A stretch of DNA of 64,000 nucleotides from Candidatus Marinacidobacterium sp. (GCA_965243415.1 OZ251549.1:2290239-2354238), one strand, 5' to 3'. Counted from the first letter of the stretch, positions 38,063 through 63,598 are shown. The notes: generated by a model from the sequence alone, not told the origin. Made by a program: numbers and translations.

Positions 38063-38235
38063 CCCGGGAACGCGCCCTCGGGGAGACCCCGGCGCGTTGA
38101 ACCCCGCCTTCCTCCGCTTCAGCCCCGGCCAGTTGCGCGCCGGGGCGCTCGTGGTGCTGTTCCTGGCGCTGCTGGCCCTCCTCCGCCGCTGCTGAGGCGC
38201 GCCCCCTCGCCGCGCCACCGTGTCGCCCCGCCACC

Positions 38236-40030
38236 ATCGACCCGCCGTTGCTCCGCAGTCAACGCCCCGCCGCCACGGTCCCCGCCGGCCGTTGCGCCGT
38301 AGTCAACGCCTCCTCGGCCCTGGACTTCCGCCATCGCCCGTTGCTATCGACCGCGGCCGGCCGACCGTCCGCCATCGCCGGAGCGCCGCCCATCGCCCCG
38401 CCACCGTCGCTCCACCACCATCGCTCCACCACGGTTCCCCGGTAGCCGTCGGCCCGCCACTGCTGCCCGTTCCGCCGTTGACTCGTCGCCGTCGCTCCGC
38501 CCCCGCTGTTGCTTCCGCGTCAACGCCCCGCCTGCTGGCGCTTCGTCGGCAACGCCCGCCTCCCGTCGCTCCGCCGCCATCGCCCCCGTCGTCGCTGACC
38601 TGCCTCGGTTGCCCGTCGCCTTCGTCGTTCCGCCATCGTCCCCGTCGCTCGTGATCCGCTGCGCCGACCCGCCGTATTCGACCGGTCGCCGCCGACGCGC
38701 CGTGGCCCGGTCGCGTTCGACCCTCCGCCGTTGACCGCGGCGCTCCGTCCGTTGTTGCTTCTGCGTCAACGCCCCGCCTGCCGTTGCTTCGTCGGCAGCG
38801 CTCGCCTGCCGTCGCTCCGCCGCCGTCGCCCCCGCCATCGCTGACCTGCCTCCGTTGCCCGTCGCCTTCGTCGTTCCGCCATCGTCCCCGCCGCGCGTGA
38901 TCCGCTGCGCCGACCCGCCGTATTCGACCGGTCGCCGCCGACGCGCCGTGGCCCGGTCGCGTTCGACCCTCCGCCGTTGACCACGGCGCTCCGTCCGTTG
39001 TTGCTTCTGCGTCAACGCCCCGCCTGCTGTTGCTTCGTCGGCAACGCCCGCCTGCCGTCGCTCCGCCGCCATCGCTGACCTGCCTCGGTTGCCCGTCGCC
39101 TTCGTCGTTCCGCCATCGTCCCCGTCGCTCGTGATCCGCTGCGCCGACCTGCCGTATTCGACCGGTCGCCGCCGACGCGCCGCGGCCCGGTCGCGTTCGA
39201 CCCTCCGCCGTTGACCGCAGCGCTCCGCCCGCTGTTGCTTCTGCGTCAACGCCCCGCCTGCTGGTGCTTCGTCGGCAACGCCCGCCTGCCGTCGCTCCGC
39301 CGCCATCGCTGACCTGCCTCGGTTGCCCGTCGCCTTCGTCGTTCCGCCATCGTCCCCGTCGCTCGTGATCCGCTGCGCCGACTGCCCGTACTCGACCGGT
39401 CGCCGCCGACGCGCCGTGGCCCGGTCGCGTTCGACCTTCCGCCATACCGCAGCGCTCCGTCCGTTGTTGCTTCTGTGTCAACGCCCCGCCTGCTGTTGCT
39501 TCGTCGGCAACGCCCCGCGCCGCCATCGCCCTTCCGCCATCGTCCCCGCCGCCCGTGCTCCGCTGCACGGACCGGCCGTACTCGACCGGTCGCCGCCGAC
39601 ACGCCGTGGCCCGGTCGCGTTCGACCTCCGCCGTTGACCACAGCGCTCCGCCCGATGTTGCTTCTGTGTCAACGCCGCGCCTGCTGTTGCTTCCTCGGCA
39701 ACGCCCCGCGCCGCCATCGCCCTTCCGCCATCGTCCCCGTCGCTCGTGATCCGCTGCGCTGACTGCCCGTACTCGACCGGTCGCTGCCGACGCGCCGTGG
39801 CCCGGTCGCGTTCGACCTCCGCCGTTGACCGCAGCGCTCCGCCTGCTGTTGCTTCTGTGTCAACGCCAAGCAGGCTGTTGCTTCGTCGGCAACGCCCTGC
39901 ACCGCTGTTGCTCCGCCGCCATCGTCCTCGTCGCCCGTGATCCGCGGCGCTGACCTTTCGTACTCGACCGGTCGCCACCGACGCGCCGTGGCCCGGTCGC
40001 GTTCGACCCTCCGCCGTTGATCGCTGTCGG
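38236..40030. repeat. non-coding tandem array, about 8 units of 189-246 bp
   Basis: The anchor GTTGCTTC[CT]G[CT]GTCAACGCC recurs at 38508, 38754, 39000, 39234, 39466, 39655 and 39848. The + strand is strongly C/T-rich. Confidence 0.9.
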
Positions 40031-42013: not shown

Positions 42014-44236
42014 GTGGCGCCGAACCTCGGCCCGGACACCGAGGTCCGCTTCGTCCGCGGCGTCGGGGAACGGCGGGCGAAGGCGCTCGGGGAAGCCGGG
42101 ATCGCCCGCGTCTCCGACCTGCTGCTGCGCCTGCCGTTCCGCTACGAGGACCGCAGCGAGGAGCGCCCGGCGCAGGCCCTCCGCGACGGCGAGTCGGCCT
42201 CGGTGGAAGTGGTCGTCGAGTCCCTGCGCGTCCGGCACACCCGCCGCCGGAACCTGAAACTGGTGGAACTGCGCGCCGCCGACCGCACCGGCCCGGTGCG
42301 GGCCACCTGGTTCAACCAGCAGCACTTGCGACACCTCCTGAAGCCGGGGAAGCGGGTGGTCCTCTTCGGCGCGGCCAAGGTGGCCTATCCGGGAGCGCCC
42401 CCGGAGTTCAGCAACCCCAAGTATGAGGTCGTCCCGGAGGACCGCCCGCCGGCGCTGGGGGAACGCGCCCCCGACCGGAAGGAGACGGGGAAGGAGATCG
42501 GGGAGGAAACGGGGGCGCCGCCGCCGGGAGCGACGGGGGCCGAACCCGGCGGGGAGGCGAGCCTCCATGTGGGCCGGATCGTGCCGATCTACGAGCGGGC
42601 GGGCGAGATCCACCCGCGCCAGTTCCGCCGCATCCTCCACGACCTCATCGAGTCCGGCGCCGGCGACGAGCCCGGCTGCCTGCCGGAGGAGATGGTCCGC
42701 CGCCGCGAGTTGCCCTCCCGCTCGGAGGCGCTCCGCGAAGTCCACTTCCCGGCGGACGGCGCTCCCCTGGACGACCTGCAGCGGCGCCGCTCCCCCGGCC
42801 ACCGCCGGCTGATCCTCGAGGAGTTCTTCTCCTTCGCCCTGGGCCTCGCCCTCCGCCGCCGCGAAGGCCGCACCGGGCGCGCCGGCGGCGGCTCGTACCC
42901 CGCGAACGACGCCATCCGGGACTTGGCGAAGGCAGTCATCCCGTTCCGGCTCACCGAGTCGCAGAAGGCCGCGCTCCGCACCATGGCCGGGGAGTTCGCC
43001 GGCCCGCAGCCGATGCGGCGGCTGCTCCAGGGCGATGTGGGTTCGGGGAAGACCATCGTGGCGGTCGTCGCCGCGCTCATCGTCATCGGGAACGGCGCCC
43101 AGGCGGCCCTCATGGCGCCCACCGAAGTGCTCGCCGAACAGCACTTCTCCACCATCCGCCGCCTGCTGGAGCCGCACCGGATCCGGGTGGCGCTGCTCAC
43201 CGCCGGCCTCTCCGCCCCCGACCGGCGCGCCACACTGGCGGCCACCCGCAGCGGCTGGGCGCAGTTCGTGGTCGGCACCCACTCGCTGATCCAGGATGGC
43301 GCCGAGTTCCACCGCCTGGGGTTCGCGATCGTGGACGAGCAGCACCGCTTCGGGGTGGAACAGCGGCAGATGCTCGTCGGGCGGGGCCGGGGCTGCGACC
43401 TGCTGGTCATGACCGCCACCCCGATCCCCCGCACCCTGACGATGGCTCTCCACGGCGACCTCGACCTCTCGGAACTCACCGAGATGCCGCCCGGCCGGCA
43501 ACCGATCCGCACCCTGGTGCGCCCGCTGGCCGGCCTCCCCGAGATCCACCGACTGGTGCGCGAGGAAGCGCGCCGGGGCCGCCAGGCGTTCTATGTCTGC
43601 CCTTTCATCGAGGACTCGGAGGCGGTGGACGGGAGCGGCGTCGAGCGCCGGTTCGGCGAACTCGCCGAGGGCCCCTTCCGGGGGTTGCGGGTGGATTTCG
43701 TCCACGGGCGGGTCCCGACCGCGCAGCGCGAGCGGGTCATGGCCGCCTTCGCCGCCGGCGATCTGGAGGTGCTGGTGGCGACGACGGTGATCGAGGTCGG
43801 CGTGGACATTCCGAACGCCACCGTCATGGTCGTGGAACACGCGGAGCGCTTCGGCCTCGCCCAACTGCACCAGTTGCGGGGCCGCGTCGGCCGGGGCGCG
43901 CATCCTTCGACCGCGGCGCTGGTCTTCGGCCCCCAGGCGACCGAAGCGGCGGCGCAGCGGCTCCGGGTGCTCGAAGCGACCACCGACGGCTTCCGCATCG
44001 CCGAAGCGGACCTGGAGCAGCGCGGCCCCGGCGACTTCTTCGGCGCCCGTCAGCACGGCCTGCCGCCCTTCCGGGTGGCCGACCTGGGGCGCGACGCGGC
44101 CTTCCTGCGCGAGGCCCGCCGGGAATCCCGCGACTTCCTCGACCGGGGCGCGGAGCACACGCCGGAAGGCCGCGAGATCCTGGCCCGCGTCCGCCGCACC
44201 TGGGGAGACCGCTTCGGCCTCACCACCGGCGGCTGA
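42014..44236 (+). CDS. recG: ATP-dependent DNA helicase RecG
   Basis: 740 aa. Wedge/OB N-terminus, GDVGSGKT, DEQHRFGV, TATPIPRT, QLHQLRGRVGRG. Confidence 0.93.
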   Translation: MAPNLGPDTEVRFVRGVGERRAKALGEAGIARVSDLLLRLPFRYEDRSEERPAQALRDGESASVEVVVESLRVRHTRRRNLKLVELRAADRTGPVRATWFNQQHLRHLLKPGKRVVLFGAAKVAYPGAPPEFSNPKYEVVPEDRPPALGERAPDRKETGKEIGEETGAPPPGATGAEPGGEASLHVGRIVPIYERAGEIHPRQFRRILHDLIESGAGDEPGCLPEEMVRRRELPSRSEALREVHFPADGAPLDDLQRRRSPGHRRLILEEFFSFALGLALRRREGRTGRAGGGSYPANDAIRDLAKAVIPFRLTESQKAALRTMAGEFAGPQPMRRLLQGDVGSGKTIVAVVAALIVIGNGAQAALMAPTEVLAEQHFSTIRRLLEPHRIRVALLTAGLSAPDRRATLAATRSGWAQFVVGTHSLIQDGAEFHRLGFAIVDEQHRFGVEQRQMLVGRGRGCDLLVMTATPIPRTLTMALHGDLDLSELTEMPPGRQPIRTLVRPLAGLPEIHRLVREEARRGRQAFYVCPFIEDSEAVDGSGVERRFGELAEGPFRGLRVDFVHGRVPTAQRERVMAAFAAGDLEVLVATTVIEVGVDIPNATVMVVEHAERFGLAQLHQLRGRVGRGAHPSTAALVFGPQATEAAAQRLRVLEATTDGFRIAEADLEQRGPGDFFGARQHGLPPFRVADLGRDAAFLREARRESRDFLDRGAEHTPEGREILARVRRTWGDRFGLTTGG

Positions 44237-44446
44237 ATCTCCGGTTCGATTCCCTCCCGGTCCCCCGGGGTGGCATTCGCCTCCGTCGTACCGGCGCGGC
44301 GCCGAGGGCTTCGGCGCTGAAGTGTCGGTCGCTCCCGCCGGAGACGCCGTTACCGCCGCGGGGATGGACCTCGGTGAGGGAACCGCCGGGAACCGGGCGC
44401 GACGGTCGATCTCGCCAGGTTCACTGCCGGCGCTATGTTCCCGGGT

Positions 44447-44558
44447 GGCGTGCGTGACACGGTGCGATTCCCCGAGCCGTAGCCCGCCCCTCCCGGGGAC
44501 GCGCGCGCTATGTGGGGTTGCCGGGCTTCGGTCCGGGGCGGGGGCCCCACCGTGCGCC
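44447..44558 (+). ncRNA. structured RNA-like element, copy 1 (subtype A)
   Basis: TATGTT box at 44434-44439. Terminal stem GGCGUGCG/CGUGCGCC (two G.U). Two internal hairpins. See finding. Confidence 0.5.
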
Positions 44559-44574
44559 ACCTCCGAAGGTTCCG

Positions 44575-44760
44575 CGCCGCCGTTCGCTCGGCGCGCGATT
44601 GCGATCACGGTGCCGGAAGGGCGCCGAATGGAACTCCATTCCTCGCGGTTCGTACGAAGACCACGCGAAGCCGGTCCCCGCCGAACCGGTAGTGGATGGC
44701 CCCTTTCGTGGCGGCGCTGTCGTGGAAATCCACCCCGGCCCCGTCGGCGATCCCACGCTC
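44575..44760 (-). pseudogene. decayed copy of the 3' third of gene 46585..47370
   Basis: Nucleotide alignment with 46598-46780. FRHRDRNRAPSERRRG vs FHRCDRNRVPSERRHG. A frameshift separates it from AIHYRFGGDRLRVVFVRTA (vs AFYHRIDSDWFRVIVKRTA). The stop is lost. Confidence 0.6.
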
Positions 44761-44804
44761 CCCCGCGCCGACGGGCGCGGGGACGACTCGCTATCCTCCC
44801 GAGC

Positions 44805-44913
44805 GGCGCACGTGACACGGTGATATTCCGTCTGCCGTAGCCCGCCCCTTCGGGGGCGCGAGTGTTATGTGGGGTTGCCGGCTTCGGCCGGGGGACGGGC
44901 CCCACCGTGCGCC
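44805..44913 (+). ncRNA. structured RNA-like element, copy 2 (subtype B)
   Basis: TATCCT at 44792-44797. 8-bp terminal stem. C(UUCG)G hairpins, hairpin 2 shortened by one bp in both arms. Confidence 0.5.
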
Positions 44914-45183
44914 ATCCGGTATCGGGTTCGAGTTGCCTGCCGGAGCGCCGCCGGTGACCCTTCCTCGTCGAACTCCTCGTTGAATCTTCGAGTTTCGAGG
45001 CGTTCGCGGTTTCCCCCGGGTTCCTTCCTCCGTTCCGGCGGTGAAGTCGAGGCTCGCCGTTTCTTCGCGGCGGCCGCTTCGAGTCTCTGTCTCGACCCCG
45101 GCCGGGGGCGACGCCGGGCCGGGGTCTTCGGTGGGTCGGCCCTCGCGCTGCGTCGCGGCTTGATTCTCGCTATATTCCCGAGC

Positions 45184-45293
45184 GGCGCACGTGACACGGT
45201 GCGATTCCCCGAGCCGTAGCCCGCCCCTTCGGGGGCGCGAGTGTTATGTGGGTTGCCGGGCTTCGGCCCGGGGCGGGGGCCCCACCGTGCGCC
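45184..45293 (+). ncRNA. structured RNA-like element, copy 3 (subtype A)
   Basis: TATATT at 45171-45176. 8-bp terminal stem GGCGCACG/CGTGCGCC. Two C(UUCG)G hairpins. Confidence 0.55.
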
Positions 45294-45339
45294 ACCCGGT
45301 TTCGAATCTGCGAAGCGCGCCGGGGCGAGGGCAGGAGGT

Positions 45340-45512
45340 TGCGTCGGTGGGATCCGGTAGAAGGTCTTGCGGTCGATCCCGTTCTCGGCGGCCTGTTCGA
45401 CGACCGCCCGGAACCGGTCCCGGCCGACTCGGTTCCCGACCGCCGTATCGGGGATGACCACCGGCGCCCCTTCGGCCAGTCGGGTGGCGTCCACCGGCGC
45501 CCCGGAACGCAT
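45340..45512 (-). pseudogene. gene remnant with HTH-like end (..PVVIPDTAVGNRVGRDRFRAVVEQAAENGIDRKTFYRIP)
   Basis: Genome-typical GC3 over about 55 codons. Shares the PVVIPD..N.(V/I)G motif with 46585..47370. No stop before it reads through RNA element 3. Confidence 0.35.
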
Positions 45513-45736
45513 CGGCGAGAGGCGCCCGCCGGTCACAGCCTTCCTCGCCGAAGGCGTTTCGGTTCGATGCTTCGGCGGTCTCTCTCGAAGGCGGCGGCGA
45601 AGTCGATGCTCCCGGCCTTCTCGCGGCAACGGCGTCGGGTCCATCTCGACCCGGCCGGGGACGCGTTGCCGAGGCGGTCTCCGGTGCGCCGGCTCTCGGG
45701 TGGCGGTGCGCCGGATTCCGCGCTATGTTCTCGGGC

Positions 45737-45845
45737 GGCGCACGTGACACGGTGCGATTCCCCGAGCCGTAGCCCGCCCCTTCCGGGGCGAGAGTGTTAT
45801 GTGGGGTTGCCGGGCTTGCCCGGGGCGGGGGCCCCACCGTGCGCC
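45737..45845 (+). ncRNA. structured RNA-like element, copy 4 (subtype A)
   Basis: TATGTT at 45724-45729. Hairpin 2 capped G(CUUG)C instead of C(UUCG)G. Confidence 0.55.
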
Positions 45846-45940
45846 ACCGCCTCGACCATTCCCCCGGCAGCGCCGCCTCCGGTCGGTGCGCTCCGGTCAA
45901 CGCCGCCCGTGTGCGCCGACGATTCGCTATCCTCCTCGGT

Positions 45941-46049
45941 GGCGCACGTGACACGGTGATATTCCGTCTGCCGTAGCCCGTTCCTTCGGGAGCGAGAGTG
46001 TTATGCGGGGTTGCCGGCTTCGGCCGGGGGACGGGCCGCACCGTGCGCT
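45941..46049 (+). ncRNA. structured RNA-like element, copy 5 (subtype B)
   Basis: TATCCT at 45928-45933. Hairpin 1 is CGUUCC/GGAGCG, compensatory relative to CGCCCC/GGGGCG. Confidence 0.5.
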
Positions 46050-46468
46050 ACCCGGTTCGGGTTCGAGAGCCGCACCGGAACGCTGCCGACGGACTCGACG
46101 GACGGACCGCGGTTCGAGGGTGGAGAGAGACCTCGCCGCTGGTGGTTCGTTCGGCGATGGCCCGAGATGGTCTTCGCCGACTCGGTTCCACACCACGGGA
46201 TCGGGGCATTTCCGTCGGCGGACCATCCGCTCGTCGGAAGATTCTCGACGGTTGGCGCCCACCGGCGCCCGGCGCTCATCGGGGATCCCGGCTGTCGAGG
46301 CCCTTCGCAGGTTCCGCCGACAGCGGGAGCGAATTCAGGGTCCCGGTCTTCTCGTGGCGGCATCGGGGAGCGCCCTCCGGTCCCGGCGGGACGCGCTGCC
46401 GGGCCGGGGTCTCCGGCACCCCCGCCTCGCGCTGCCGCACGGCCGGGTTCCGTGCTATACTCCCGATC

Positions 46469-46577
46469 GGCGCACGTGACACGGTGCGATTCCCCGAGCC
46501 GTAGCCCGCCCCTTCGGGGGCGCGAGCGCTATGTGGGGTTGCCGGGCTTGCCCGGGGCGGGGGCCCCACCGTGCGCC
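46469..46577 (+). ncRNA. structured RNA-like element, copy 6 (subtype A)
   Basis: Extended -10 TGcTATACT at 46453-46461. CUUG-capped hairpin 2. The 3' end lies 8 nt from the stop codon of the convergent gene 46585..47370. Confidence 0.55.
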
Positions 46578-46584
46578 ACCCGCC

Positions 46585-47370
46585 TCAACGGTTACCGTGT
46601 CGCCGTTCGCTCGGTACACGATTGCGATCACAGCGGTGGAAGGTCTGCAGATAGACCTCGTTGATCGCGGTTCGTTTAACGATGACCCGGAACCAGTCGC
46701 TGTCGATCCGGTGGTAGAAGGCGAGATGCCGGTCGTCTATGGCCTCCCACTCGCCGTGCGCGATGACCTCCGGCAAACGCCGGTAGTGGCGGGCTCGAAG
46801 CGGTTTGCTGTGCCGCCCGTCTTCGTGCTTCAGTTGCTTCAGGGCTGTCTCGGGTGAGAGCCACACCACCCGGCCCGTTTCCGAGTTCGAGTTGGGCGCG
46901 GGCGTCATGGCGGAGCGCGGTTCGTCCGGCAGGGTCGCCACGGGGATCTCCCCGATCTGGTTCCTGATCTCCGGGTCAGGGATCACCACCGGGTTCCGTT
47001 GCCGCCACTCCGGGTGCAACCGGCCGTAGGCCGCAACTCGCGCCCGGAACTGGTCCAGGAGCGGGTCCCGCTCGTCGAGGCATTCGCGGATCCTCTCGAG
47101 GCCGGCCCCGAACTCGAGGTCCGCGATCTCCGGTTGGTGGCGTTGCCGCGGAGCCCGGCCCCGACCCGGAGCCTGCGGGCCCCGAGCGCGGGGGCCCGGC
47201 CGGGACGCACCGGTTCCCGGGGCTGCGACAGCGTGGCGGGCCTCCCGGCGCCTCTCCGCCGCGCCCTCGGGACACGGGGCCGGGGCGGGCGGGGGCGGGG
47301 CACGTTCGGGAGGCGAGCTGCTGCCTCCCGGAGGGGAGCGGGGCGGACCGCGTCCGGCGTCGATTGCCAT
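46585..47370 (-). CDS. hypothetical protein with a small low-GC C-terminal nuclease-like domain (alternative start ATG 46906-46908)
   Basis: The C-terminal 107 aa (LSPETALKQLKHEDGRHSKPL..YRRLPEVIAHGEW..FRVIVKRTAINEVYLQTFHR) have ordinary composition and lower GC. The N-terminal 80 aa are Pro/Arg-rich and doubtful. Confidence 0.65.
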   Translation of the reverse strand: MAIDAGRGPPRSPPGGSSSPPERAPPPPAPAPCPEGAAERRREARHAVAAPGTGASRPGPRARGPQAPGRGRAPRQRHQPEIADLEFGAGLERIRECLDERDPLLDQFRARVAAYGRLHPEWRQRNPVVIPDPEIRNQIGEIPVATLPDEPRSAMTPAPNSNSETGRVVWLSPETALKQLKHEDGRHSKPLRARHYRRLPEVIAHGEWEAIDDRHLAFYHRIDSDWFRVIVKRTAINEVYLQTFHRCDRNRVPSERRHGNR

Positions 47371-47375
47371 CGGCG

Positions 47376-48644
47376 TCAACTCGCCGCGCGGGCGGCGATC
47401 TCCGGTGGTTCCGGCGCGGTCGCGCGGCCCGGGTCGGCGTCGTCCCCGCCGGCGCCGGCAGCGTCCCGTTCGTCCATGCCGGCCCCGAGCGGATGCAGGG
47501 CGTCGCCGTCCAGCGTCCGCTCCTCCAGGGCGCGGAGGTAGGCGTCGTTCTCCGGGGCGCGGCCGGTCTCTGCCGCCTCCGGTGCTTCGGGCAGGAAACC
47601 CGGACGGAGGGCGGTCGGGATCGCGCCGATCTCCGGGGTCTGGCGCGCCAAACTGGTGTGCGCCGCCTCCCGCGCCAGGAAGTTCACGAACTCCCGCGAG
47701 CCGCCCTTCCAATCCCGCACCGTGCCGGCGAGCGCCATCGGGTGTTCCGTCTCCTCCCGGTCGAGCGCGCAGCCGGGGCGGTAGGTGCGCACCGCGTTGC
47801 CGAACACGCTGAACCGGCGGCCCAGCCGTTCGCTCAGGGCGAAGGTCATCGGCCCGGTCAGGACAACCACATGGGCGAGTCCGACGGTGCGCCAGGCGAG
47901 GTCGGCGACATCGATGGCGGCGGTCTCGGCGTCGGTCTCGTGGACCTCCAGCCCGGTCACGAAGACCGGCCGGGTGCGCTCCGGATCCCCGAGCAGGAGG
48001 ATCAACTCTTCGACGCTCTCGTGGTCGCGGACGATCCAGGGCTGCGCCCGGAGCCGCCAGCCGTAGTCGGTCAGGCCGGGCGAGTCGGCGAGGTCGTGGA
48101 CCAGGTCCGGCGCTCCGGCCCGGTCCACCGAGTGGGCGCCGAGACCCCCGCGGGTGAGCAGCGTGGCGTGGAGGCGGGTGATCCCCCCGGTCTCGACCAG
48201 GAACACCTGCACCCGCCAGCCGCGCGCGCCGGGCGCGGGTCCCCGGCCGTCCAGCGCGGCGCCGAAGCAGCGTCCGTCGCCGGTGGTCCACTCCTCCGCG
48301 CAGCCGATGGAGCGGCCGCCGGGGAAGCGGCAGGGCTCGGCGGCCGCGTCCGGGTGCGCCGTCTCGGGCGGCAGACCGAACGGCGTCGGCGCCCCGGTGT
48401 GGAACTCCATCCAGCGCAGGACCCGGCCCCGGGAGACGCCGAACTCGCCGCCGTTGCCGTCGTGGGCGACCTCGGCGCAGACGGCCGTCGCCGGGCTCAG
48501 CCGCCGCGTCCGGGGCTCGGGCCGGACCGCGGTCGCGTCCGGGAGCGGCAGCGGCTCCCACATCGGCCGCCGGCGGGGCGCCGGTCGCGGCCGGCGCTCC
48601 GGGTGCGGCGCCGCGGGTTGGAGTAGGGTCGCGGGATGGGGCAT
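47376..48644 (-). CDS. hypothetical protein (422 aa), no family recognised
   Basis: ATG 48642-48644 within the ORF 47376..49541. Residues 60-360 have ordinary composition (RPVFVTGLEVHE..GLAHVVVLTGPMTFALSERLG..). The stop lies 5 nt before the next start. Confidence 0.65.
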   Translation of the reverse strand: MPHPATLLQPAAPHPERRPRPAPRRRPMWEPLPLPDATAVRPEPRTRRLSPATAVCAEVAHDGNGGEFGVSRGRVLRWMEFHTGAPTPFGLPPETAHPDAAAEPCRFPGGRSIGCAEEWTTGDGRCFGAALDGRGPAPGARGWRVQVFLVETGGITRLHATLLTRGGLGAHSVDRAGAPDLVHDLADSPGLTDYGWRLRAQPWIVRDHESVEELILLLGDPERTRPVFVTGLEVHETDAETAAIDVADLAWRTVGLAHVVVLTGPMTFALSERLGRRFSVFGNAVRTYRPGCALDREETEHPMALAGTVRDWKGGSREFVNFLAREAAHTSLARQTPEIGAIPTALRPGFLPEAPEAAETGRAPENDAYLRALEERTLDGDALHPLGAGMDERDAAGAGGDDADPGRATAPEPPEIAARAAS

Positions 48645-48753
48645 GAGGCCTCCTCGGTGGGGAGAGTTCCCTCCGGGGGGAAGGAACCGGGTTCGCCGGC
48701 GGCGCGCCGGCGGGTCGAACGCCCGGGTTGAGCGTTCGGGAGGGGCGTTCGCG

Positions 48754-49554
48754 ATGAGCGTTCGCATCGGGGGCGGGCGGCTCGCCGGCCGGGAGTTGCT
48801 CGGACCGCCTTCCCTCCGGCGGCGCCGGCCCGGAGCGGCGGCGCGGCGGTCGGGCGGCGAGACCCGACCGGCGGCGGCGCGGCTGCGGAAGAGCCTCTTC
48901 GCGGTGCTCGCCGACGAGATCCCGGGGGCCCGGGTGCTCGATGTCTGCGCCGGCGTCGGCGCCCTGGGCTTCGAGGCGCTCTCCCGGGGCGCGGCGCACT
49001 GCGTCTTCGTCGAGCGGTCGCGCGGGGTCGCCGAGCGGTTGGGTCGGAGCGCCCTCCGGCTGGGACTCGCCGGCGCGGACCTCCGGGTGGGGCCGGCGGA
49101 GCGGCTGCTGCCGGCGCTCCGGCGGCGCGGCGGGCGGTTCGACCTGGTGTTCCTCGACCCGCCCTGGAAGGACTGGGACGAAGGGCCGGCCCCGGCGCTG
49201 CGCCTGCTCGCCGGCGCCGCCGCCCTCCGCCCGGCCCTCCTGGTGGCCCTGCACCGCGCTACGCAGTCGCTCCCCGCCGAAGTCCGGGAGCGGAACGGGC
49301 CGGGAATCGGGCCGGGATTCGGGGCGGAGACCGCGGCGGGGACGGACTCGGCCCCGGGAGCGGAGGCCGCGTACCGGCGCGTCCGCACCACCGCGGCTGG
49401 GGACGGGGCGTTCAGCCTGTACCGCCCGCCCGAACCGGAAGCCGCCGCGGTCGGCCCTCCCGCCTCCGAGGCTGCCGCCCCGGGAATTCCCGAGTCCGGG
49501 GAGACCCGATCGGGAACGGACCGGGCGGAAACCAGGCTCACAACCGTTTCTTGA
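48754..49554 (+). CDS. rsmD: 16S rRNA (guanine966-N2)-methyltransferase RsmD with C-terminal extension
   Basis: ATG 48754. RPAAARLRKSLFAVL, VLDVCAGVGALGFEALSRGA, DLVFLDPPW. rsmD-coaD synteny. Confidence 0.85.
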   Translation: MSVRIGGGRLAGRELLGPPSLRRRRPGAAARRSGGETRPAAARLRKSLFAVLADEIPGARVLDVCAGVGALGFEALSRGAAHCVFVERSRGVAERLGRSALRLGLAGADLRVGPAERLLPALRRRGGRFDLVFLDPPWKDWDEGPAPALRLLAGAAALRPALLVALHRATQSLPAEVRERNGPGIGPGFGAETAAGTDSAPGAEAAYRRVRTTAAGDGAFSLYRPPEPEAAAVGPPASEAAAPGIPESGETRSGTDRAETRLTTVS

Positions 49555-49576
49555 ACGGATGTCCAAGAATATCTGC

Positions 49577-49670: not shown

Positions 49671-50264
49671 GTGTTAGGTTTCGCCCGCGCCGGCGCCTGC
49701 CGCGTCGCCCGCCCTTTGAGTTCCGCTTCGCCCGCCGGCCGCGTCGCCATCTGCCCCGGGTCCTTCGACCCGCTCACCCTCGGCCATGTGGACATCATCC
49801 GCCGGGCCGCGCGCCTGTTCGACCGGGTGGTCGTCTCGGTGCTGCAGAACACCGGCAAGACCCCCCTCTTCGGCGTCGGCGAGCGGATCGACCTGATCCG
49901 CGCCACCTTCCGCGACGATCCCCGGGTCGAAGCCGCCTCGTTCTCCGGGCTCCTGGTGGACTACGCCCGGGAGTGCGGCGCCGCCGCCATCGTGCGCGGC
50001 ATCCGGGCGCTCTCGGACTTCGAGTACGAGTTCCAGATGGCCCTCATGAACCGGCGGCTCGCGCCCCAGGTGGAGACCGTGTTCCTGACGCCGGCGGAGG
50101 AGTACTTCTATGTGAGTTCCCGGCTCATCAAGGAGATCGCCGCCCTCTCCGGCGATGTCTCCGGCCTGGTCCCGGAGCCGGTGGCCGCCGGACTCCGGCG
50201 AAAATTCCCGCCCGCCGCCCCCGCCGCGCCGGCGACCGACCCCGACCCCCGCTCCGCTCCCTGA
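49671..50264 (+). CDS. coaD: phosphopantetheine adenylyltransferase (start probably internal)
   Basis: VAICPGSFDPLTLGHVDII, AIVRGIRALSDFEYE. Confidence 0.88.
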   Translation: MLGFARAGACRVARPLSSASPAGRVAICPGSFDPLTLGHVDIIRRAARLFDRVVVSVLQNTGKTPLFGVGERIDLIRATFRDDPRVEAASFSGLLVDYARECGAAAIVRGIRALSDFEYEFQMALMNRRLAPQVETVFLTPAEEYFYVSSRLIKEIAALSGDVSGLVPEPVAAGLRRKFPPAAPAAPATDPDPRSAP

Positions 50265-50287
50265 CGATCGAAGGAGACCGACCGCCC

Positions 50288-51478
50288 ATGGCCCCGACCG
50301 CCCCGCCCCTCGCCGCGCGAGTTCGCGCCATCGCCCCCTCGCCGACCATGGCGGTCATGGCCGAGGCCCTGCGCCTCAAGGCCGCCGGCGAGGATGTGGT
50401 GGATTTCTCTGCCGGCCAGCCGGACTTCGACACCCCCGAAGTGGCGCGCGCCGCCGGCAAGGACGCCATAGATACCGGCTACACGCGCTACACGCCGAAC
50501 CCGGGGGCGCCGGAACTCCGGGAAGCGGTGGCGGCGAGTTACGGCCGGGACTTCGGCCTCGACTACGGCCCCGCCCAGGTGCTCATCACCAGCGGCGGCA
50601 AGCACGCCCTCACCGGCCTGCTCCTCGCCACCTGCGAGGAAGGCGACGAGGTGCTGCTCTCGACTCCCTACTGGCCGACCTTCCCGGAGCAGGTCAAGAT
50701 CGTGGGCGCCACCCCGGTCATCGCCCCCACCGCCGCGGAGGACGGCTTCCGCCCCACTCGGAAGAGCATGGAGCCGGCGATCACCGACCGCACCCGGCTC
50801 ATCATCCTGAACATCCCCGGCAACCCCTCCGGGGTGGTGCTGCCCCCCGCCGAACTGGAAGCGGTGGCGAAACTGGCGTTCGAAGCCGACGCCTACCTGC
50901 TCTGGGACGACACCTACGCCCGACTCACCTTCGAGCCGCCCCCGGAGGGCGCCTACCGCCGGATGGCCGACCTCCTGGGCCACCGCTTCCTGATCGCCGG
51001 CGGCGCCTCGAAGTCCTACGCCATGACCGGCTGGCGCCTGGGCTGGGCGCTCGGCGACGCCGCCATCATCAAGGGCGCCGCCTCGCTCCAGAGCCAGATG
51101 ACCTCGAACGCCTGCTCCATCTCCCAGCGCGCCGCCCTCGCCGCCGTGCAGGAGGACCCGGCGGAGTTCGCCTGGATGACGCGGGAGTTCGCCCGGCGCT
51201 CGGAACGGATGCGGAACCTCCTGCTGCAGATCGAGGGCGTCCGCTGCGCCGCCCCCGACGGCGGCTTCTACCTGTTCCCGGACTTCGCCGCCCGGTTGGG
51301 GGACGGCGAGGGATCGCAGGACCTCGCGACCGCACTGCTCACCTCGGAACGGGTCGCCACCGTCCCCGGCGCCGCCTTCGGCTGCGACACCCACCTCCGG
51401 TTCAGTTACGCCACCTCCGACGAACAGATCGACAAGGGCCTGGCCCGCGTCCACTCCTTCTTCGCCCGCCGCGGCTGA
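50288..51478 (+). CDS. PLP-dependent aminotransferase class I (aspartate aminotransferase-like)
   Basis: ATG 50288. 396 aa. YTPNPG, NPSGVV, SKSYAMTGWRLGW (Lys for PLP). Confidence 0.9.
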   Translation: MAPTAPPLAARVRAIAPSPTMAVMAEALRLKAAGEDVVDFSAGQPDFDTPEVARAAGKDAIDTGYTRYTPNPGAPELREAVAASYGRDFGLDYGPAQVLITSGGKHALTGLLLATCEEGDEVLLSTPYWPTFPEQVKIVGATPVIAPTAAEDGFRPTRKSMEPAITDRTRLIILNIPGNPSGVVLPPAELEAVAKLAFEADAYLLWDDTYARLTFEPPPEGAYRRMADLLGHRFLIAGGASKSYAMTGWRLGWALGDAAIIKGAASLQSQMTSNACSISQRAALAAVQEDPAEFAWMTREFARRSERMRNLLLQIEGVRCAAPDGGFYLFPDFAARLGDGEGSQDLATALLTSERVATVPGAAFGCDTHLRFSYATSDEQIDKGLARVHSFFARRG

Positions 51479-51519
51479 TCCTCGGTCGGCCTCTACGCGC
51501 ACCTACCACACCGACACCG

Positions 51520-54150
51520 ATGACGGGCATCTACGACTGGGTCCCCTGGTTCCGGGCCTTGTCCGCGAGGATCGTGGAAGTCGGTGAGCAGGGCCTCATC
51601 GATCGGGCCCAGGAGGTGGACTGGGGGGCGAAGAAGCCGACGCTGTCGAAGTTCGGTTTTGACCAGATCGACCCACTGTCGTTGGTGTATTTCCTCTCCT
51701 CGAAGAACGGCAACTACGCCGTCTTCGAGTCAGTACATCGCACCTTTGAGATCGACACGCCTCTACCTGACCAGACGATGCCAGAGGCGTGGGTGTTTCC
51801 GGTGGCCATGCCTCTCAAGGCGAATTTCTTCGGCAAGGACGGACCACCAAAGCCGAATTTGTTCTGGCGCCTGTTTCGACAGGTGCAGCCGGATGAGCCT
51901 ACGCTCGACGACGTCACATTCCAAGGGGCTCTCCAAATCAAGGGGCTCGGCGTCGCCATGCTGACGCAGGCGATGTGCTTGGTGAATCCCTACCGCTTCC
52001 TTCCGATCGACGACTTCACGAGGCCGCTCATCGGACAGTTTCCGGCAGCGGATATCCTCAAGAAGGGCAAGGCGGCGCTGAAGGACATCATCACACTTGA
52101 CAACTACACGGCGATCATGTGTGGCGTTCGAGACGTGTTCCGGGGTTGCGAACTCTACGAAATCGGTAGATTCCTCTACGAACACGGGAAAAAGAAGAAG
52201 GGGCTCGTCACCAAGAAGTCGACCTATTTCCACATTACCACGAGACTGCACGGAGACAAAGGAGACGACGCCTGGAATGAATTCGATCAGGAGAACGCGG
52301 TCCGAACAAGCGGCCAAGCCCCCCGCGTTCCGTTCGGCAAACTGTTGCCAGACGGCACAGAACCCTATCCGTTGGAGGAGCCGAGACCGGGCGACATCAT
52401 GCTGGTCCGATGCGGCGTGCACGAGGGGCGTGGAGTCGGCGTCGTGGTTCGCAACGACTTTGCGTTGCCGGGCGACCTCAGGGCCGAGAGTCGAATCCAT
52501 GTCCTCTGGATCAACAAGGCCCGTTCCCGTCTGTCCGGTCAGACGGAGCGGTCTGCCATGGGTGAGATCAGAAAGCAGAAGAAAGCGACGTTCTGCGCCT
52601 TCTCGAACGCGAAGGCGTACGAGCCCACGTTCAAGATCCTGCGGGTGCGATTCGAAGTGCCGGACCCAGTAGAATGCAAAGGCGAGGAGCCGAACGGGCC
52701 AGTGGTGACACATTCTCGGAACCAGATCCTCTACGGGCCCCCAGGGACGGGGAAGACTTGGAACACAGTGTCACTTGCGGTGGCGATCGCCGACGGCCGG
52801 GCTGTGGTCGAGGTGGAATCGGACGGGCGGGAGTGCGTGAAGGCACGGTTCGATGAACTCCGGGGGGCGGGGCAGGTCGCCATGGCAACGTTCCACCAGA
52901 ACTACGCGTACGAGGACTTCATCGAGGGCATCCGTCCCGTCGTGGAAGACGATGCCGATGACGGCGTGGCGTTCGAATTGCGTCGCGGGGTGTTTCGGAT
53001 TCTGGCGGAGCGGGCAGCGGAGAATCTGCGGGACTCGAGGATGTCCGGCGACGACTCTTGGAAGACGGAGGACGTCCTCCGGAAGTTTCTGGAGTGGGTG
53101 GACGAGACGACGGAGGGAGAAGAGCGGATTCCGTTGTACCGGAGCGGAAAGGTCGAGCTCTTCATCTATGGGGTCTACGAAGGGAAGAGCGGGGATGTGG
53201 CCGGCGTCCGGATCGGCGGGACGACGGACCAGAAACTGTCCTGGAAGGTTCTGGCTCGTGACTATCCCCCGTTCCGGAGAGGACTGATCACTTCCTATCA
53301 GGACATCAAGCCTACGAAACCGTCGAAGAGCCCATGGTTCGGGCAGGCCATCTATGCGTACGAGGTGTTGAAGAAGATGGGAGAGTTCCACGAACAGCAC
53401 CGAGACGAATTGGAACGCGAGAGGACGGAGAGGCGCAATTTCGTTCTCATCATCGATGAGATCAATCGGGGGAACATCGCCCGGATCTTCGGGGAACTCA
53501 TCACTCTGCTGGAGGAGTCGCGGCGCATCGGATGCAGTGACGAGACAAGAGTGGTGCTGCCCTATTCCGGAGAGGAGTTCGGAGTGCCCGAGAATCTGTA
53601 CGTCATCGGGACGATGAACACGGCGGACCGGTCTATCGCGCTTCTCGACACTGCACTCCGGAGACGCTTCGAGTTCGTGGAGATGATGCCGAGGGCGGAC
53701 CACGAGGGTGTGTCGGGAAAAGTTGATGGAGTCGACTGCCAGCGGCTGTTGGAATCCATGAACCGGAGGATCCGGTTCCTTCTCGACCGGGAGCACCAGA
53801 TCGGCCACACCTATCTCTTGGGTGTGAAGAACATCGTGGATCTGAAAAAGGCCTTCCAGAAGCAGATTCTGCCACTCCTGCAGGAGTACTTCTACGACAA
53901 CTGGGCGAAGATCAAGGCGGTACTTGGTGCCAGCGGCTTCATCAAGACCGTGGACCGCCCGGGGGAATTGAGTACGGAACTGGTGGACGCCGACCAGAAA
54001 GCCTACGATGTCTTGGCGTACACGGATGAGAAGTGGGAGGAGCCGGCCTCCTACAGGAAGATCTACGACGAGAAGGCCGGTGCGGACCAGAAGGTGCCGG
54101 AGGCCGAGCCGGAGCAGGGGGCGGAGACGGGTGGCACTGCCGGCGGATGA
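51520..54150 (+). CDS. mcrB: McrB-family GTP-dependent restriction AAA+ subunit, with long unassigned N-terminal region
   Basis: ATG 51520. GPPGTGKT, FHQNYAYEDFIEG, IIDEINRGN, IGTMNTADRS, LRRRFEF. GC visibly lower than the flanks. Confidence 0.9.
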   Translation: MTGIYDWVPWFRALSARIVEVGEQGLIDRAQEVDWGAKKPTLSKFGFDQIDPLSLVYFLSSKNGNYAVFESVHRTFEIDTPLPDQTMPEAWVFPVAMPLKANFFGKDGPPKPNLFWRLFRQVQPDEPTLDDVTFQGALQIKGLGVAMLTQAMCLVNPYRFLPIDDFTRPLIGQFPAADILKKGKAALKDIITLDNYTAIMCGVRDVFRGCELYEIGRFLYEHGKKKKGLVTKKSTYFHITTRLHGDKGDDAWNEFDQENAVRTSGQAPRVPFGKLLPDGTEPYPLEEPRPGDIMLVRCGVHEGRGVGVVVRNDFALPGDLRAESRIHVLWINKARSRLSGQTERSAMGEIRKQKKATFCAFSNAKAYEPTFKILRVRFEVPDPVECKGEEPNGPVVTHSRNQILYGPPGTGKTWNTVSLAVAIADGRAVVEVESDGRECVKARFDELRGAGQVAMATFHQNYAYEDFIEGIRPVVEDDADDGVAFELRRGVFRILAERAAENLRDSRMSGDDSWKTEDVLRKFLEWVDETTEGEERIPLYRSGKVELFIYGVYEGKSGDVAGVRIGGTTDQKLSWKVLARDYPPFRRGLITSYQDIKPTKPSKSPWFGQAIYAYEVLKKMGEFHEQHRDELERERTERRNFVLIIDEINRGNIARIFGELITLLEESRRIGCSDETRVVLPYSGEEFGVPENLYVIGTMNTADRSIALLDTALRRRFEFVEMMPRADHEGVSGKVDGVDCQRLLESMNRRIRFLLDREHQIGHTYLLGVKNIVDLKKAFQKQILPLLQEYFYDNWAKIKAVLGASGFIKTVDRPGELSTELVDADQKAYDVLAYTDEKWEEPASYRKIYDEKAGADQKVPEAEPEQGAETGGTAGG

Positions 54151-59665: not shown

Positions 59666-61489
59666 TCAGGAGATAGCCGCCAGTGATGCCAGCAGTGTGT
59701 CCGCGGCTCTGTCCGCGGCCGAAAGCGCTTCGCCCAGATCGATCCCATCGAGAATCAAGTCTCCGGTACTTGCGAGGCCGACAACCGATGCGGCGGCGGT
59801 CCCTCCGGCGCGAAGCGTGGCTTTGCGAAGGGCATCCGTTCGTGATTTCCACATCTCGAGAGCGGCGGCGGCCGCGCCTACGGAGCGCCCGTCCATGTGG
59901 GGTATTTTCCCGGCCGCCGCCACCATCCTCTCCCCTGCCTCTGTCAATTTGCGACTCGCGGTGCGTGCGGCAACCGCAGCGGTTCCCAAGCGCAGTGTCG
60001 CCCCGACAAGAGCCGCTCTGTTCGCGTCGGCTCTCGCGCTCTTCCACTCCTCCGCGGCGACCTGTGCCGCGGACCAAGCCGCGATGCGTGTGTCGTATGC
60101 ATTCAGCAGGGCCGCCGCTTCCTCGTAGGAAGTTTGAGCAGCTTGGGCGGCGGCGATCACAGGCGCCGCTGCTTCAGATGCCGCCTCGGCCGCAGCAGTG
60201 ACTACGAGGAGTTTTTCTTCGTGCTCAGCACGAACGAGTTCCATAGCCTCACGTGCATGCATCTCAGCCACCGCCATGTACGCTCCATGTCGCTCCTCCA
60301 GCCTTCGTTCTATTTCCCTCGCAGTGGCAACGATTTCGCCTCCCGCCCCCAACCCCTCAGTCAGGATTCGTGTCGCTGCCCTTGCCCGCTCCAGCGCCGA
60401 ACCCGCCGACTGCGCATCAACGACCTCCGCCAGCACTTCCGCGATTCCGGAGGCCGCGTCCGCTTCCGAAGCCGCCCCCACTGCACGACCCTCGGCCTCG
60501 GCGGCCTGCTGTTGTAGTGGCCTCGTGAATGCGGCCGCTGCCAGCCCAGCACTTCGCCAAACTACTGTCGCTTCATCCAATGCTTCCATCCATTGTTTCA
60601 CATTGCGTCTACAGTCTTCGCGACGCCAGCAATCTCGACGCACAATGCTCTCTTGTGCTTCTACGATCGCATCCTCCGCAGCCAACGCCTCTTCTGACTT
60701 CGACGGAGCCACGAGGTCAAGAAGACGCCGACGCGCCTCGCGCGTGTGTCCAAGCCGGCCTGGCACGAGGTCAAGAAGACGCCGACGCGCCTCGCGCGTG
60801 TGTCCAAGCCGGCCTGGCATCAGTGACTGCCGGGACGAGGAGTAGCGCGAGTAGTTGTGGAAGAAGAGAGTGTATTGGCAGTTTGACAGAGAGAGGGGCT
60901 GCCCGGTCGGCATGTGATGTTGTGCTTCATTTTTCCACCCGACCAACTCATTACTCCACTTTCGCATGAATTCACGGTCGGTCCACCATGCCCTTCTCCA
61001 GCGTCCCACCTCCTGTGTGTACCGGACAGCCACGTCTGCCGCTGACTTCGCCTCTCGGGCTTCCTGTTGCAGAGTCTGCGCTTGGCCGTGAAGTCTCTCG
61101 GCCTCGCCCTTTGAGGTCGCCGCCTTCTCTTTCCAGGAATTGATCATCTCCTCATAGTCCGTCAGCATGTCTGCCTCCGGTGTCTCCATCCAGAAGTGTC
61201 GTGCAGCATTCGCCGCATCCGCGGCTTGATCTTCCACACGGGCCTCAGCCTCCCGAAGTGCGCTCCGGGCGGCATCACGAGAGTGGCGGGCCTTCTCGGC
61301 CAGTGCTTCGGCCGCAGCGAGTGCGGCCTCGGCTCTGGTAGCACGCGATTCCACGGCCCGAAAGGTTGCCGGTGTCTGATTAGACAAGTACCACCGTGTC
61401 CGTTCACTGCTGTGTCTTGCATGAGGCGTGGCAATACTCAGGGAGGCGACTGCCAAGGCGATCGGAAGGGATCGGATAGCAATTTTCAT
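59666..61489 (-). CDS. secreted Ala-rich helical protein, unknown function
   Basis: 607 aa. Signal peptide MKIAIRSLPIALAVASLSIATPHA. Lower GC. Contains an in-frame 18-aa exact duplication. Confidence 0.72.
   Translation of the reverse strand: MKIAIRSLPIALAVASLSIATPHARHSSERTRWYLSNQTPATFRAVESRATRAEAALAAAEALAEKARHSRDAARSALREAEARVEDQAADAANAARHFWMETPEADMLTDYEEMINSWKEKAATSKGEAERLHGQAQTLQQEAREAKSAADVAVRYTQEVGRWRRAWWTDREFMRKWSNELVGWKNEAQHHMPTGQPLSLSNCQYTLFFHNYSRYSSSRQSLMPGRLGHTREARRRLLDLVPGRLGHTREARRRLLDLVAPSKSEEALAAEDAIVEAQESIVRRDCWRREDCRRNVKQWMEALDEATVVWRSAGLAAAAFTRPLQQQAAEAEGRAVGAASEADAASGIAEVLAEVVDAQSAGSALERARAATRILTEGLGAGGEIVATAREIERRLEERHGAYMAVAEMHAREAMELVRAEHEEKLLVVTAAAEAASEAAAPVIAAAQAAQTSYEEAAALLNAYDTRIAAWSAAQVAAEEWKSARADANRAALVGATLRLGTAAVAARTASRKLTEAGERMVAAAGKIPHMDGRSVGAAAAALEMWKSRTDALRKATLRAGGTAAASVVGLASTGDLILDGIDLGEALSAADRAADTLLASLAAIS
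60711..60818 (-). repeat. perfect 2 x 54-bp tandem duplication
   Basis: 60711-60764 is identical to 60765-60818. Encodes (PGRLGHTREARRRLLDLV)x2 in frame. Confidence 0.95.
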
Positions 61490-63298: not shown

Positions 63299-63598
63299 GG
63301 GGGATGCCTCCGGGAGAGCGGTCTCCGGGGTTCGGGTCCGTGGGGGAAGGGGGATCGGGGTCGTCGGTCGCGGCCGGCGGCTGTTCGCGTTGGCCGGATC
63401 TGCGTCGCCGGTCTGCGCGTCGCCGCGCGGTGGCCGGTCCGGCTGGCGGAACCGGCCCCCGGAACTGGCCCGCCGGCGCGGTCGGCTCGACTCTCCGGGC
63501 CGGGGGAACGCCGCCCCGGCAGGGGCCGTTCCGCCGAACGGAGACCGGGAAGGATACGCCCGCCGGGAACCCCCCGCAACTGCCGGGAAGCGCCGCGC

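Follow-up and report, generated by a model that had tools for sequence, protein, structure and literature searches.

In the type III toxin–antitoxin (TA) system ToxIN, the endoribonuclease ToxN is held in check by a pseudoknotted RNA, ToxI. Many toxins of the BECR fold are tRNases, and the proteins of the MuF family lie inside the virion. The MuF polymorphic toxins of temperate phages are followed by a downstream gene for a protein that confers immunity (Jamet et al., 2017; PMC5576092), and the PBECR domains form part of polyvalent proteins (Iyer et al., 2017; PMC5512222). HEC-07 is a candidate defence gene with predicted AdoMetDC-like and thioredoxin-like regions and a C-terminal RelE-family RNase; the accessible part of its description does not mention an RNA component (10.1101/2024.01.29.577857). 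Here, we analyse a stretch of 64 000 nucleotides from Candidatus Marinacidobacterium sp. (GCA_965243415.1, OZ251549.1:2290239-2354238; hereafter the window), in which six copies of a structured RNA element lie in tandem, convergent with a gene (Y) for a predicted RNase. The element belongs to a widespread RNA family with a conserved fold, strand and −10 box and with a linkage to the domain encoded by Y, and we consider whether it could be an RNA antitoxin.

The RNA array and its family

The element is 109–112 nt long and is present in six plus-strand copies, at exactly the positions that an initial annotation of the window had given. The array comprises the following features.

44434-44439, plus strand: −10-like box TATGTT of copy 1 (sequence; position class kept in homologues)
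44447-44558, plus strand: RNA copy 1, type A, P1 with U·G and G·U pairs (covariance model, 70.3 bits)
44568-44700, minus strand: gene Y remnant, decayed and frameshifted, C-terminus, residues 215-258 (tblastn; repeat families D9/D10)
44792-44797, plus strand: −10-like box TATCCT of copy 2 (sequence)
44805-44913, plus strand: RNA copy 2, type B, pseudoknot CCGUC/GACGG (covariance model, 92.8 bits)
45171-45176, plus strand: −10-like box TATATT of copy 3 (sequence)
45184-45293, plus strand: RNA copy 3, type A (covariance model, 73.6 bits)
45351-45670, minus strand: gene Y remnant, decayed and internally deleted, residues 62-97, 125-138 and 201-245 (tblastn)
45724-45729, plus strand: −10-like box TATGTT of copy 4 (sequence)
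45737-45845, plus strand: RNA copy 4, type A (covariance model, 88.8 bits)
45928-45933, plus strand: −10-like box TATCCT of copy 5 (sequence)
45941-46049, plus strand: RNA copy 5, type B, compensatory P3 CGUUCC/GGAGCG (covariance model, 81.5 bits)
46120-46280, minus strand: gene Y remnant, decayed, residues 104-154 and 226-240 (tblastn)
46456-46461, plus strand: −10-like box TATACT of copy 6, with TGc ahead of it (sequence)
46469-46577, plus strand: RNA copy 6, type A, 7 nt from the Y stop codon (sequence, fold, family covariation)
46469-46476/46570-46577, 46481-46484/46499-46502 and 46507-46512/46517-46522, plus strand: helices P1, P2 and P3 of copy 6 (sequence, fold, family covariation)
46533-46538/46564-46569 and 46542-46546/46551-46555, plus strand: helices P4 and P5 of copy 6 (sequence, fold, family covariation)
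46492-46496 and 46558-46562, plus strand: pseudoknot of copy 6, with the 5′ strand CCCCG in the P2 loop and its partner CGGGG (covarying pairs)

A 29-nt core pattern has exactly six matches in the window, against 0.00 expected, and the covariance model of the family (R1) returns the same six copies and no others. The copy cores share 77–96% pairwise identity with the pairing kept, and the units lie 204–553 nt apart at one locus and in one orientation. The box upstream of each copy, described previously as rare in this background, belongs to a class (GCTAT[ACG][CT]TC) that occurs seven times in the window against 0.5 expected, six of the seven being at the array copies; the end of its TATNNT hexamer is 7 nt from the terminal stem in all six. 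The sole other occurrence of GCTATACTC in the window, at 63597-63605, is the same as the box of copy 6, and R1 finds no RNA downstream of it.

The stretches between the RNAs are minus-strand remnants of Y, frameshifted and internally deleted (tblastn; repeat families D9, D10 and D12). The initial annotation was right about the six RNA copies but had overlooked this origin of the spacers as decayed copies of the neighbouring gene. As the spacers are decayed copies of Y, the array is a tandem duplication of a [Y + RNA] unit. Its two parts have fared very differently: the Y remnants have decayed to 30–50% amino-acid identity with insertions and deletions, whereas the RNA genes and their −10 boxes remain 77–96% identical. 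In a syntenic relative (loci L150/L151), Y is 73% identical and the four RNA copies have the type order A, A, B, A; L150 has an intact open reading frame (ORF) of 137 amino acids for the domain alone between the first two of them. An unrelated chromosomal locus (L161/L162) has a standalone domain gene of 211 amino acids and, after it, four RNA copies among which three pseudoknot sequences occur.

Folding energies of the single sequences are not significant (z of −1.7 to +0.9, in a background of 72% GC), and the case for a structure therefore rests on comparative evidence; for most of the window copies, the terminal stem and three internal arms do appear in the minimum-free-energy fold. The family consensus begins with P1 (7 bp; 8 bp in the window), UGAC and the 4-bp helix P2 (ACGG/CCGU), which has a loop of about 15 nt (UGAUAUUCUCCCGG). 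AGCA follows, then P3 (5–6 bp, capped by a tetraloop or an insert) and GGAGCGCCAU. The 3′ half consists of P4 (6 bp, GUGGGG/CCCCAC) around UU, an optional hairpin P5 and a purine-rich bulge, and the 3′ strand of P1 comes directly after P4 with no spacer; the 3′ tail of the RNA is not conserved. A pseudoknot of 5–6 bp, seen by eye and then counted, joins the 3′ part of the P2 loop to the bulge just 5′ of the 3′ strand of P4. These comparisons support a cloverleaf-like four-way junction (P1–P4) with an optional P5 and a pseudoknot. The stems proposed earlier are thus retained, while P2 and the pseudoknot had been missed; the loop that was likened to a tRNA T-loop, GGUGCGAUUCC, is the 5′ half of the pseudoknot and no T-loop.

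The alignment of 105 distinct homologues, which was fitted to the covariance model, has standard pairs in 97.6% of the pair cells, compared with 78.0% after shuffling and 37–46% with slid partners. Both sides have changed at 24 of the 32 pairs, and covariation is found in P1 (7/7 pairs), P3 (4/5) and P4 (4/6). In the pseudoknot core four of the five pairs covary, with no unpaired cell in 103 sequences. A structure-blind MAFFT alignment of 25 sequences agrees with the model-fitted one: 93.5% of the cells are paired (80.3% when shuffled) and 20 pairs show double changes, a count reached by none of 500 shuffles. In contrast to the covarying helices, the long unpaired stretches GUGACACGGUGAUAUUC, GCCGUAGCAC and GGAGCGCCAUG are conserved in different phyla. 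The view that the element is a structured RNA and no DNA repeat is borne out by both alignments, and the substitutions in the homologues, which had been proposed as a test, keep the stems.

The variation within the window follows the same rule. The exchange of UUCG for CUUG in copies 4 and 6, the CGUUCC/GGAGCG helix of copy 5, the matched 1-nt deletions in both arms in copies 2 and 5 and the G·U pairs of copy 1, all reported in the initial annotation, are present in the sequence. Its division of the copies into two subtypes in the order A B A A B A also stands as regards the order, but the subtypes are a compensatory switch in the pseudoknot: type A has CCCCG/CGGGG and type B CCGUC/GACGG, with a further difference of 1 bp in P5.

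Wobble pairs identify the strand. G·U or U·G occupies 142 cells over all pairs and A·C or C·A only 21 (98 and 21 on leaving out the weakest pair), and so the folded strand is the plus strand of the window, as had been claimed. A TANNNT motif ends 6–11 nt before P1 in 75 of 143 distinct homologue upstream regions, with about 1–3 at other offsets, and lower-GC relatives have −35 boxes (TTGCAT or TTGCGG) at a spacing of 16–17 nt, in line with the description of the element as promoter-linked. We propose from these sequence features that the copies are separate transcription units, each a gene for a small RNA of about 110 nt.

More than 150 homologues of the RNA were found in viral contigs, metagenomes and the genomes of several phyla. 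The pattern GTGACACGGTGNNATTCCNNNNGCCGTAG matched six IMG/VR viral contigs, and a looser pattern matched at least 117 loci in GTDB genomes; the taxa among the matches listed are Alpha-, Beta- and Gammaproteobacteria, Bilophila, Desulfovibrio, SAR324, Nitrospirae, Acidobacteriota, Kiritimatiellota and a few others. Among the cultured hosts of homologues are Bilophila wadsworthia ATCC 49260, Komagataeibacter xylinus, Gluconobacter japonicus and Pseudoroseomonas cervicalis ATCC 49957. All of the pattern-found homologues were confirmed by the covariance model, at 42–114 bits. The genome scan selected sequences by a conserved 30-nt pattern, and the diversity of the family is consequently under-sampled. 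Arrays of two copies occur at L034, L041, L055 and L139. At L139, in a metagenome-assembled genome (MAG) of Nitrosomonas, the two copies (91-196, plus strand; 438-543, minus strand) are convergent and about 240 nt apart, unlike the tandem arrays, in which all copies have the same orientation. One of the best-scoring copies (114 bits) is a true orphan in a gammaproteobacterial MAG (L071, 4992-5096); it is flanked by a gene for a Uma2-type nuclease, two small ORFs on the same strand and a DNA methylase, and its surroundings contain no Mu-like genes.

The RNA does not correspond to any family in Rfam 15, for which there was no match at the gathering score in the whole window and none at E ≤ 1 on five viral loci. 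In E-value mode (E ≤ 1–5) the region 44300-46700 gave chance-level sub-hairpins only (PhotoRC-I, 18 bits against a gathering score of 45), so that the search suggested with the initial annotation revealed no known family in either mode. ARAGORN was likewise empty for the window; a tRNA or tmRNA was rejected on this count and also for the tetraloop on P3 in place of an anticodon loop and the lack of a conserved 3′ tail. A CRISPR-like reading of the array was rejected, as was the end of a miniature inverted-repeat transposable element (MITE) or insertion sequence (IS), given six copies in one array and one orientation and the excess of G·U over A·C. Neither the RNA (blastn) nor the domain (tblastn) has a match in the 50 697 GenBank phage records of INPHARED, and no example from a cultured phage can therefore be named. 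We found no description in the literature of the RNA element or of PBECR or MuF toxins that have an RNA partner.

The partner domain and its linkage to the RNA

Searching with the domain encoded by Y, which is unbiased with respect to the RNA, recovered a convergent RNA gene abutting the stop codon at 23 of 26 viral and nine of 11 metagenome loci, or 32 of 37 in all; as some contigs are shared between collections, the loci are partly non-independent. Three of the other five (L021/L170, of the same sequence, L027/L028, also of the same sequence, and L173) have a divergent element with the same logic of P1, P4 and pseudoknot. At these loci the divergent RNA (GGCAAAnUCUCCCGGC ... GGUGG-loop GGGGAG-CCACC) lies on the minus strand about 100 nt past the MuF stop codon and has a covarying closing stem and a loop–loop contact, CUCCC/GGGAG, as in the main family. 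L031 has a different promoter-linked closed-stem element in the position of the RNA, and L030 is the fifth locus without the main-family RNA. In the reverse direction, 73 of 137 testable RNA copies have a domain ORF that ends 0–13 nt from the 3′ end of the RNA.

The viral partner is a MuF/gp30-type head-morphogenesis protein of about 390–440 amino acids, encoded between a Mu-like portal gene and the Mu G/I genes. Its N-terminal Phage_Mu_F domain (PF04233; E of 7e-18 and 2e-18) is absent from Y and from the standalone ORFs. The slot of about 150 nt past the MuF stop codon is the RNA gene, and a Mu G-like or I-like late gene comes directly after it. Standalone domain ORFs of 135–211 amino acids in unrelated chromosomal neighbourhoods have a convergent RNA gene too, among them versions of 135–157 amino acids in ordinary surroundings. 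At L159 it is a single main-family copy, 6 nt past the stop codon, while at L153 and L158 it belongs to a third sequence class, whose closing stem covaries and which has a −10 box of its own. The third class (core ...CUCAUGCCUUCGGGCGAGCGCGGGG.UUACG.CCCGC...) was seen on the minus strands of L153 (4457-4560), L158 (3409-3500) and L155 (about 4960-5045), convergent to standalone domain genes of 135–151 amino acids; at L155 an ORF of 97 amino acids for a FaeA-like helix–turn–helix protein lies between the RNA and the domain gene. R1 with its filters off gave no match to the divergent classes (L021/L027, L030, L031, L153 and L158), which were judged by eye only. The linkage of RNA and domain is independent of the N-terminal context, as it is found with MuF fusions, with Y beside an HEC-07 homologue and with standalone ORFs.

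In the window, the 993-codon ORF at 46585-49566 was rejected as a single gene, since the phase of the GC content at third codon positions (GC3) splits the interval into two.

46585-47370, minus strand: gene Y, protein with a PBECR3-like predicted RNase domain (GC3 frame analysis, homologues, sub-threshold PBECR3, AlphaFold2, BFVD)
47376-48671, minus strand: gene X, homologue of the N-terminal part of HEC-07, directly upstream of Y (GC3, synteny in L150, PADLOC)

The conserved domain of Y occupies 46588-47037, its last ~150 codons; about 85 codons at the N-terminus are of low complexity, and the start codon is uncertain. Co-occurrence of the RNA with homologues of the interval 46585-48644, which had been put forward as a test, therefore holds for this last part only, the rest being the separate gene X.

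The domain has 14 close homologues (P0001–P0014), none with a Pfam match. Pfam scans of Y and 31 homologues gave sub-threshold matches to PBECR3 (PF18812) only and no ToxN-type family: Y itself scores 18 bits (E of 0.0028) against a cut-off of 30 bits, and ten of 31 family members have such matches, the best with an E of 1.4e-4. The AlphaFold2 model of the domain, with a predicted local distance difference test score of 88.4 and a predicted template modelling score of 0.82, has helices followed by a four-stranded antiparallel sheet. Foldseek against BFVD found phage ‘Nuclease’ polyvalent proteins and minor capsid proteins (E of 3.5e-5 to 6e-3, TMq of about 0.5). Against the PDB it found nothing significant, the weak top matches being the RNase toxins CdiA-CT (7m5f and 6cp9), BrnT (3u97) and HigB2 (5jaa), and a profile search of PDB sequences gave no matches. 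Invariant residues of the domain are S, T, Q, H, Y, V and T, with a near-invariant K at two positions and R at one. Taken with the model, the domain is predicted to be a toxin-like RNase of the BECR fold.

X matches the PADLOC model of HEC-07 with an E of 1.5e-47 over profile positions 16–300 of 553, while Y has no PADLOC match. Neither gene has a counterpart in PHROGs or NCBIfam, where the MuF partner has only a sub-threshold match to SPP1 gp7 (NCBIfam). With X matching the N-terminal part of HEC-07 and Y being PBECR3-like, X and Y look like a split HEC-07-type system, judging by sequence, in which the RNase module has been swapped for a PBECR3-like one.

X, Y and the array are located between recG (42014-44236) and the rsmD-like and coaD genes, near a gene for an McrB-like ATPase. 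The latter is an ORF at 50155-54150 with AAA_5/McrB-like matches; the same gene in the syntenic L150 is annotated as DUF8425, AAA_5 and McrB_lid. A low-GC patch over it (52001-54000, 0.595 against about 0.72) suggests a horizontally acquired restriction or defence gene beside X and Y. Elsewhere in the window there is a large tandem repeat region at 38503-40024 (periods of 234, 480 and 191 nt, 2–4 copies, about 88–90% matches), which coincides with an AT skew of −0.42 and a GC skew of −0.24 (38001-40000). A 15/30/45-nt tandem repeat at 12445-12685, in which the unit ACGGGAATNCGCCTG is present about 13 times, may encode a repetitive stretch of protein or form a series of binding sites, and a perfect 54-nt direct duplication (2.0 copies, 100% identity) lies at 60710-60819 within another lower-GC stretch.

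Proposed function and rival explanations

The RNA is almost always encoded tail to tail with a predicted RNA-cutting domain, and for this reason we consider an antidote to a toxin to be its most likely role. Specifically, we give about even credence to the RNA being a type III-like antitoxin or immunity factor for the PBECR3-like RNase, multiplied in the array for dosage. The RNA would bind and neutralize the BECR-fold domain encoded opposite it. In Mu-like phages, the RNase would be the C-terminal cargo of the MuF head protein and the RNA would protect the producing cell. In the window, Y would be the effector that acts with the HEC-07-like X in a candidate abortive-infection defence, and the RNA would restrain Y until infection, as ToxI does ToxN. 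After duplication of the [Y + RNA] unit, the toxin copies decayed while the RNA genes and their promoters were kept, and the array may thus provide a higher dosage of antitoxin and retain two pseudoknot variants. A role in antitoxicity or immunity fits best with four observations: the asymmetry of the linkage (the domain is almost never without the RNA, but the RNA is often alone, a pattern that fits immunity genes), the retention of RNAs beside decayed toxins, the independence of the linkage from context and the constitutive type of the promoters.

The RNA may also be a tRNA-shaped pseudo-substrate of the RNase, an idea suggested by its tRNA-like outline together with the tRNase activity of many BECR toxins; it is a lead from resemblance only. 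In the fuller form of this idea, the pseudoknotted RNA would inhibit as a pseudo-substrate an RNase used both as virion-delivered cargo on MuF and as the effector of the HEC-07-like system, and the orphans and the arrays with their different pseudoknot sequences, in cells and in prophages, would constitute an immunity repertoire that protects against or excludes phages injecting the RNase. We hold this fuller form to be possible but somewhat doubtful.

Several points weigh against an antitoxin. RNase activity, toxicity, direct binding and neutralization are all inferred, and the PBECR3 scores lie under the Pfam cut-off with no significant match in the PDB. A simple σ70 promoter and terminator scan of 44300-46700 found no −35 element, full promoter or intrinsic terminator at the window copies; with a −10-like box only and no recognizable terminator there, the exact ends of the transcripts are inferred. 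Outside the window, 59 of 132 RNA genes have no detectable adjacent domain. Their contexts are heterogeneous: sites in Mu-like prophages (after gpI, beside Mor-like or GemA genes, near the Mu transposase), mobile-element or defence-type surroundings and plain intergenic DNA. With about half of the RNA genes lacking an adjacent domain, the RNA may not need the domain for its function; the domain hidden Markov model was built from seven sequences, and some of the orphans may therefore adjoin unrecognized toxin variants. In its convergent layout the locus is like type I antisense pairs and unlike known type III systems; a late transcript of the phage must cross the RNA gene in antisense. Finally, a cofactor, a guide or a co-packaged partner would predict the same co-occurrence.

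The layout is the starting point for a cis-antisense RNA of type I, which would pair with the 3′ untranslated region of the toxin or late-operon mRNA or with the intergenic segment and cause cleavage or a block, without binding a protein. The 3′ end of the RNA is 0–13 nt from the stop codon, the MuF-G late transcript of the phages must hold the full complement of the RNA, and a simple scan finds no terminator between the two genes in the window. Pure pairing has no need of a tertiary fold, yet the pseudoknot and the unpaired GUGACACGGUGAUAUUC, GCCGUAGCAC and GGAGCGCCAUG are conserved while the helices covary; moreover, there are orphan copies and arrays without an adjoining cognate mRNA, and known type I toxins are small membrane peptides. 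We consider antisense action unlikely. A positive partner of the domain, such as a cofactor, a scaffold, a guide or a cargo, for instance a tRNA-shaped RNA that is co-packaged with MuF and injected, or else the natural substrate of the domain, draws on the same evidence of co-occurrence, on the cloverleaf-like helices of 7, 4, 5 and 6 bp without a spacer between P4 and P1, and on the established position of MuF-family proteins inside the virion. It is similarly improbable: the RNA has its own constitutive-looking promoter, which faces against the late operon, many RNA genes are orphans without the domain, and in the window and L150 the RNAs are kept while the copies of the domain decay, a pattern that is typical of immunity genes.

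Alternatively, the RNA would be an autonomous small RNA or ribozyme ‘moron’ (for example a decoy against host defences, or self-cleaving) of Mu-like prophages and mobile elements, for which the site after MuF is a favoured slot. Besides the 59 of 132 copies outside the window that have no domain, some copies follow gpI or Mor-like genes or stand in non-phage contexts, and the conservation of the nucleotides at the junction is reminiscent of a ligand-binding or catalytic core. The linkage holds, however, for standalone domain ORFs at unrelated chromosomal sites and for the HEC-07-like locus, where there is no MuF slot, and other subfamilies of the domain have other promoter-linked closed-stem RNAs in the same position; we think an autonomous role quite unlikely. 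A repeat that acts as DNA (a MITE or IS end, a recombination site or a terminator of the repetitive extragenic palindromic type) and has no RNA function could explain the multiple copies and the 8-bp terminal inverted repeat. It is hardly credible in view of the single orientation and single locus, the large excess of G·U over A·C and the covarying pseudoknot; there is no transposase or target-site duplication, and the decayed gene copies in the spacers point to tandem duplication.

Comparison with described systems

The RNA described here represents a widespread class of complex-folded bacterial and phage RNAs that is new to Rfam, with more than 150 instances in Pseudomonadota, Desulfobacterota, Acidobacteriota, Nitrospirota, SAR324 and uncultivated viruses. 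If it does neutralize the RNase, this would be the first case of a BECR-fold toxin with an RNA antitoxin and of a MuF polymorphic toxin with an RNA as its immunity factor. It would also explain why the MuF–PBECR cargo is harmless in the producing cell and would supply a missing component of the HEC-07-type defence candidates.

In outline, the RNA is most like tRNA and the tRNA-like RNAs (the tRNA-like domain of tmRNA, and YrlA), with which it shares helices of 7, 4, 5 and 6 bp, the absence of a spacer between P4 and P1 and a loop–loop contact at the position of the elbow. It differs from tRNA in having a tetraloop for the anticodon loop, no CCA end and a pseudoknot of 5–6 bp as the contact, and the Rfam tRNA, tmRNA and Y-RNA models and ARAGORN do not match it. 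The arrangement of the genes is like that of the convergent type I TA pairs txpA/RatA and bsrG/SR4 of Bacillus subtilis, in which toxin and RNA genes are also tail to tail; there, however, the toxins are small hydrophobic peptides and the RNAs are antisense, with no conserved tertiary fold.

As in the MuF polymorphic toxins, the viral loci have an N-terminal Phage_Mu_F domain, a variable and predicted toxic C-terminus and a place in the head-morphogenesis module, but the downstream slot has a convergent structured RNA gene instead of an ORF, and Y in the window has no MuF domain. The resemblance to HEC-07 (PADLOC; Payne et al.) lies in the strong match of X and in the fact that HEC-07 also ends in an RNase of the BECR superfamily (RelE family); here, the N-terminal part (X) and the RNase (Y) are separate ORFs.

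The proposed logic is closest to that of the type III TA systems (ToxIN, CptIN and TenpIN), in which a pseudoknotted RNA is set against an endoribonuclease, the RNA gene is multiplied and there is a link to phage defence or abortive infection. The pseudoknot in the antitoxin, a hallmark of type III, is present in the RNA family, with the covariation and complete pairing given above. Membership of the known type III systems was nevertheless rejected, as there is no ToxN/AbiQ toxin and no array of ~36-nt repeats upstream in the operon. The toxin here is PBECR3/BECR-like rather than ToxN/AbiQ, the RNA is a four-way junction of about 90–115 nt rather than a repeat of 34–36 nt, and the copies, each with a promoter of its own, are found downstream of the toxin gene and in convergent orientation rather than upstream in its operon. 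If the RNA acts as proposed, type III-like logic would thus reach beyond the ToxN family.

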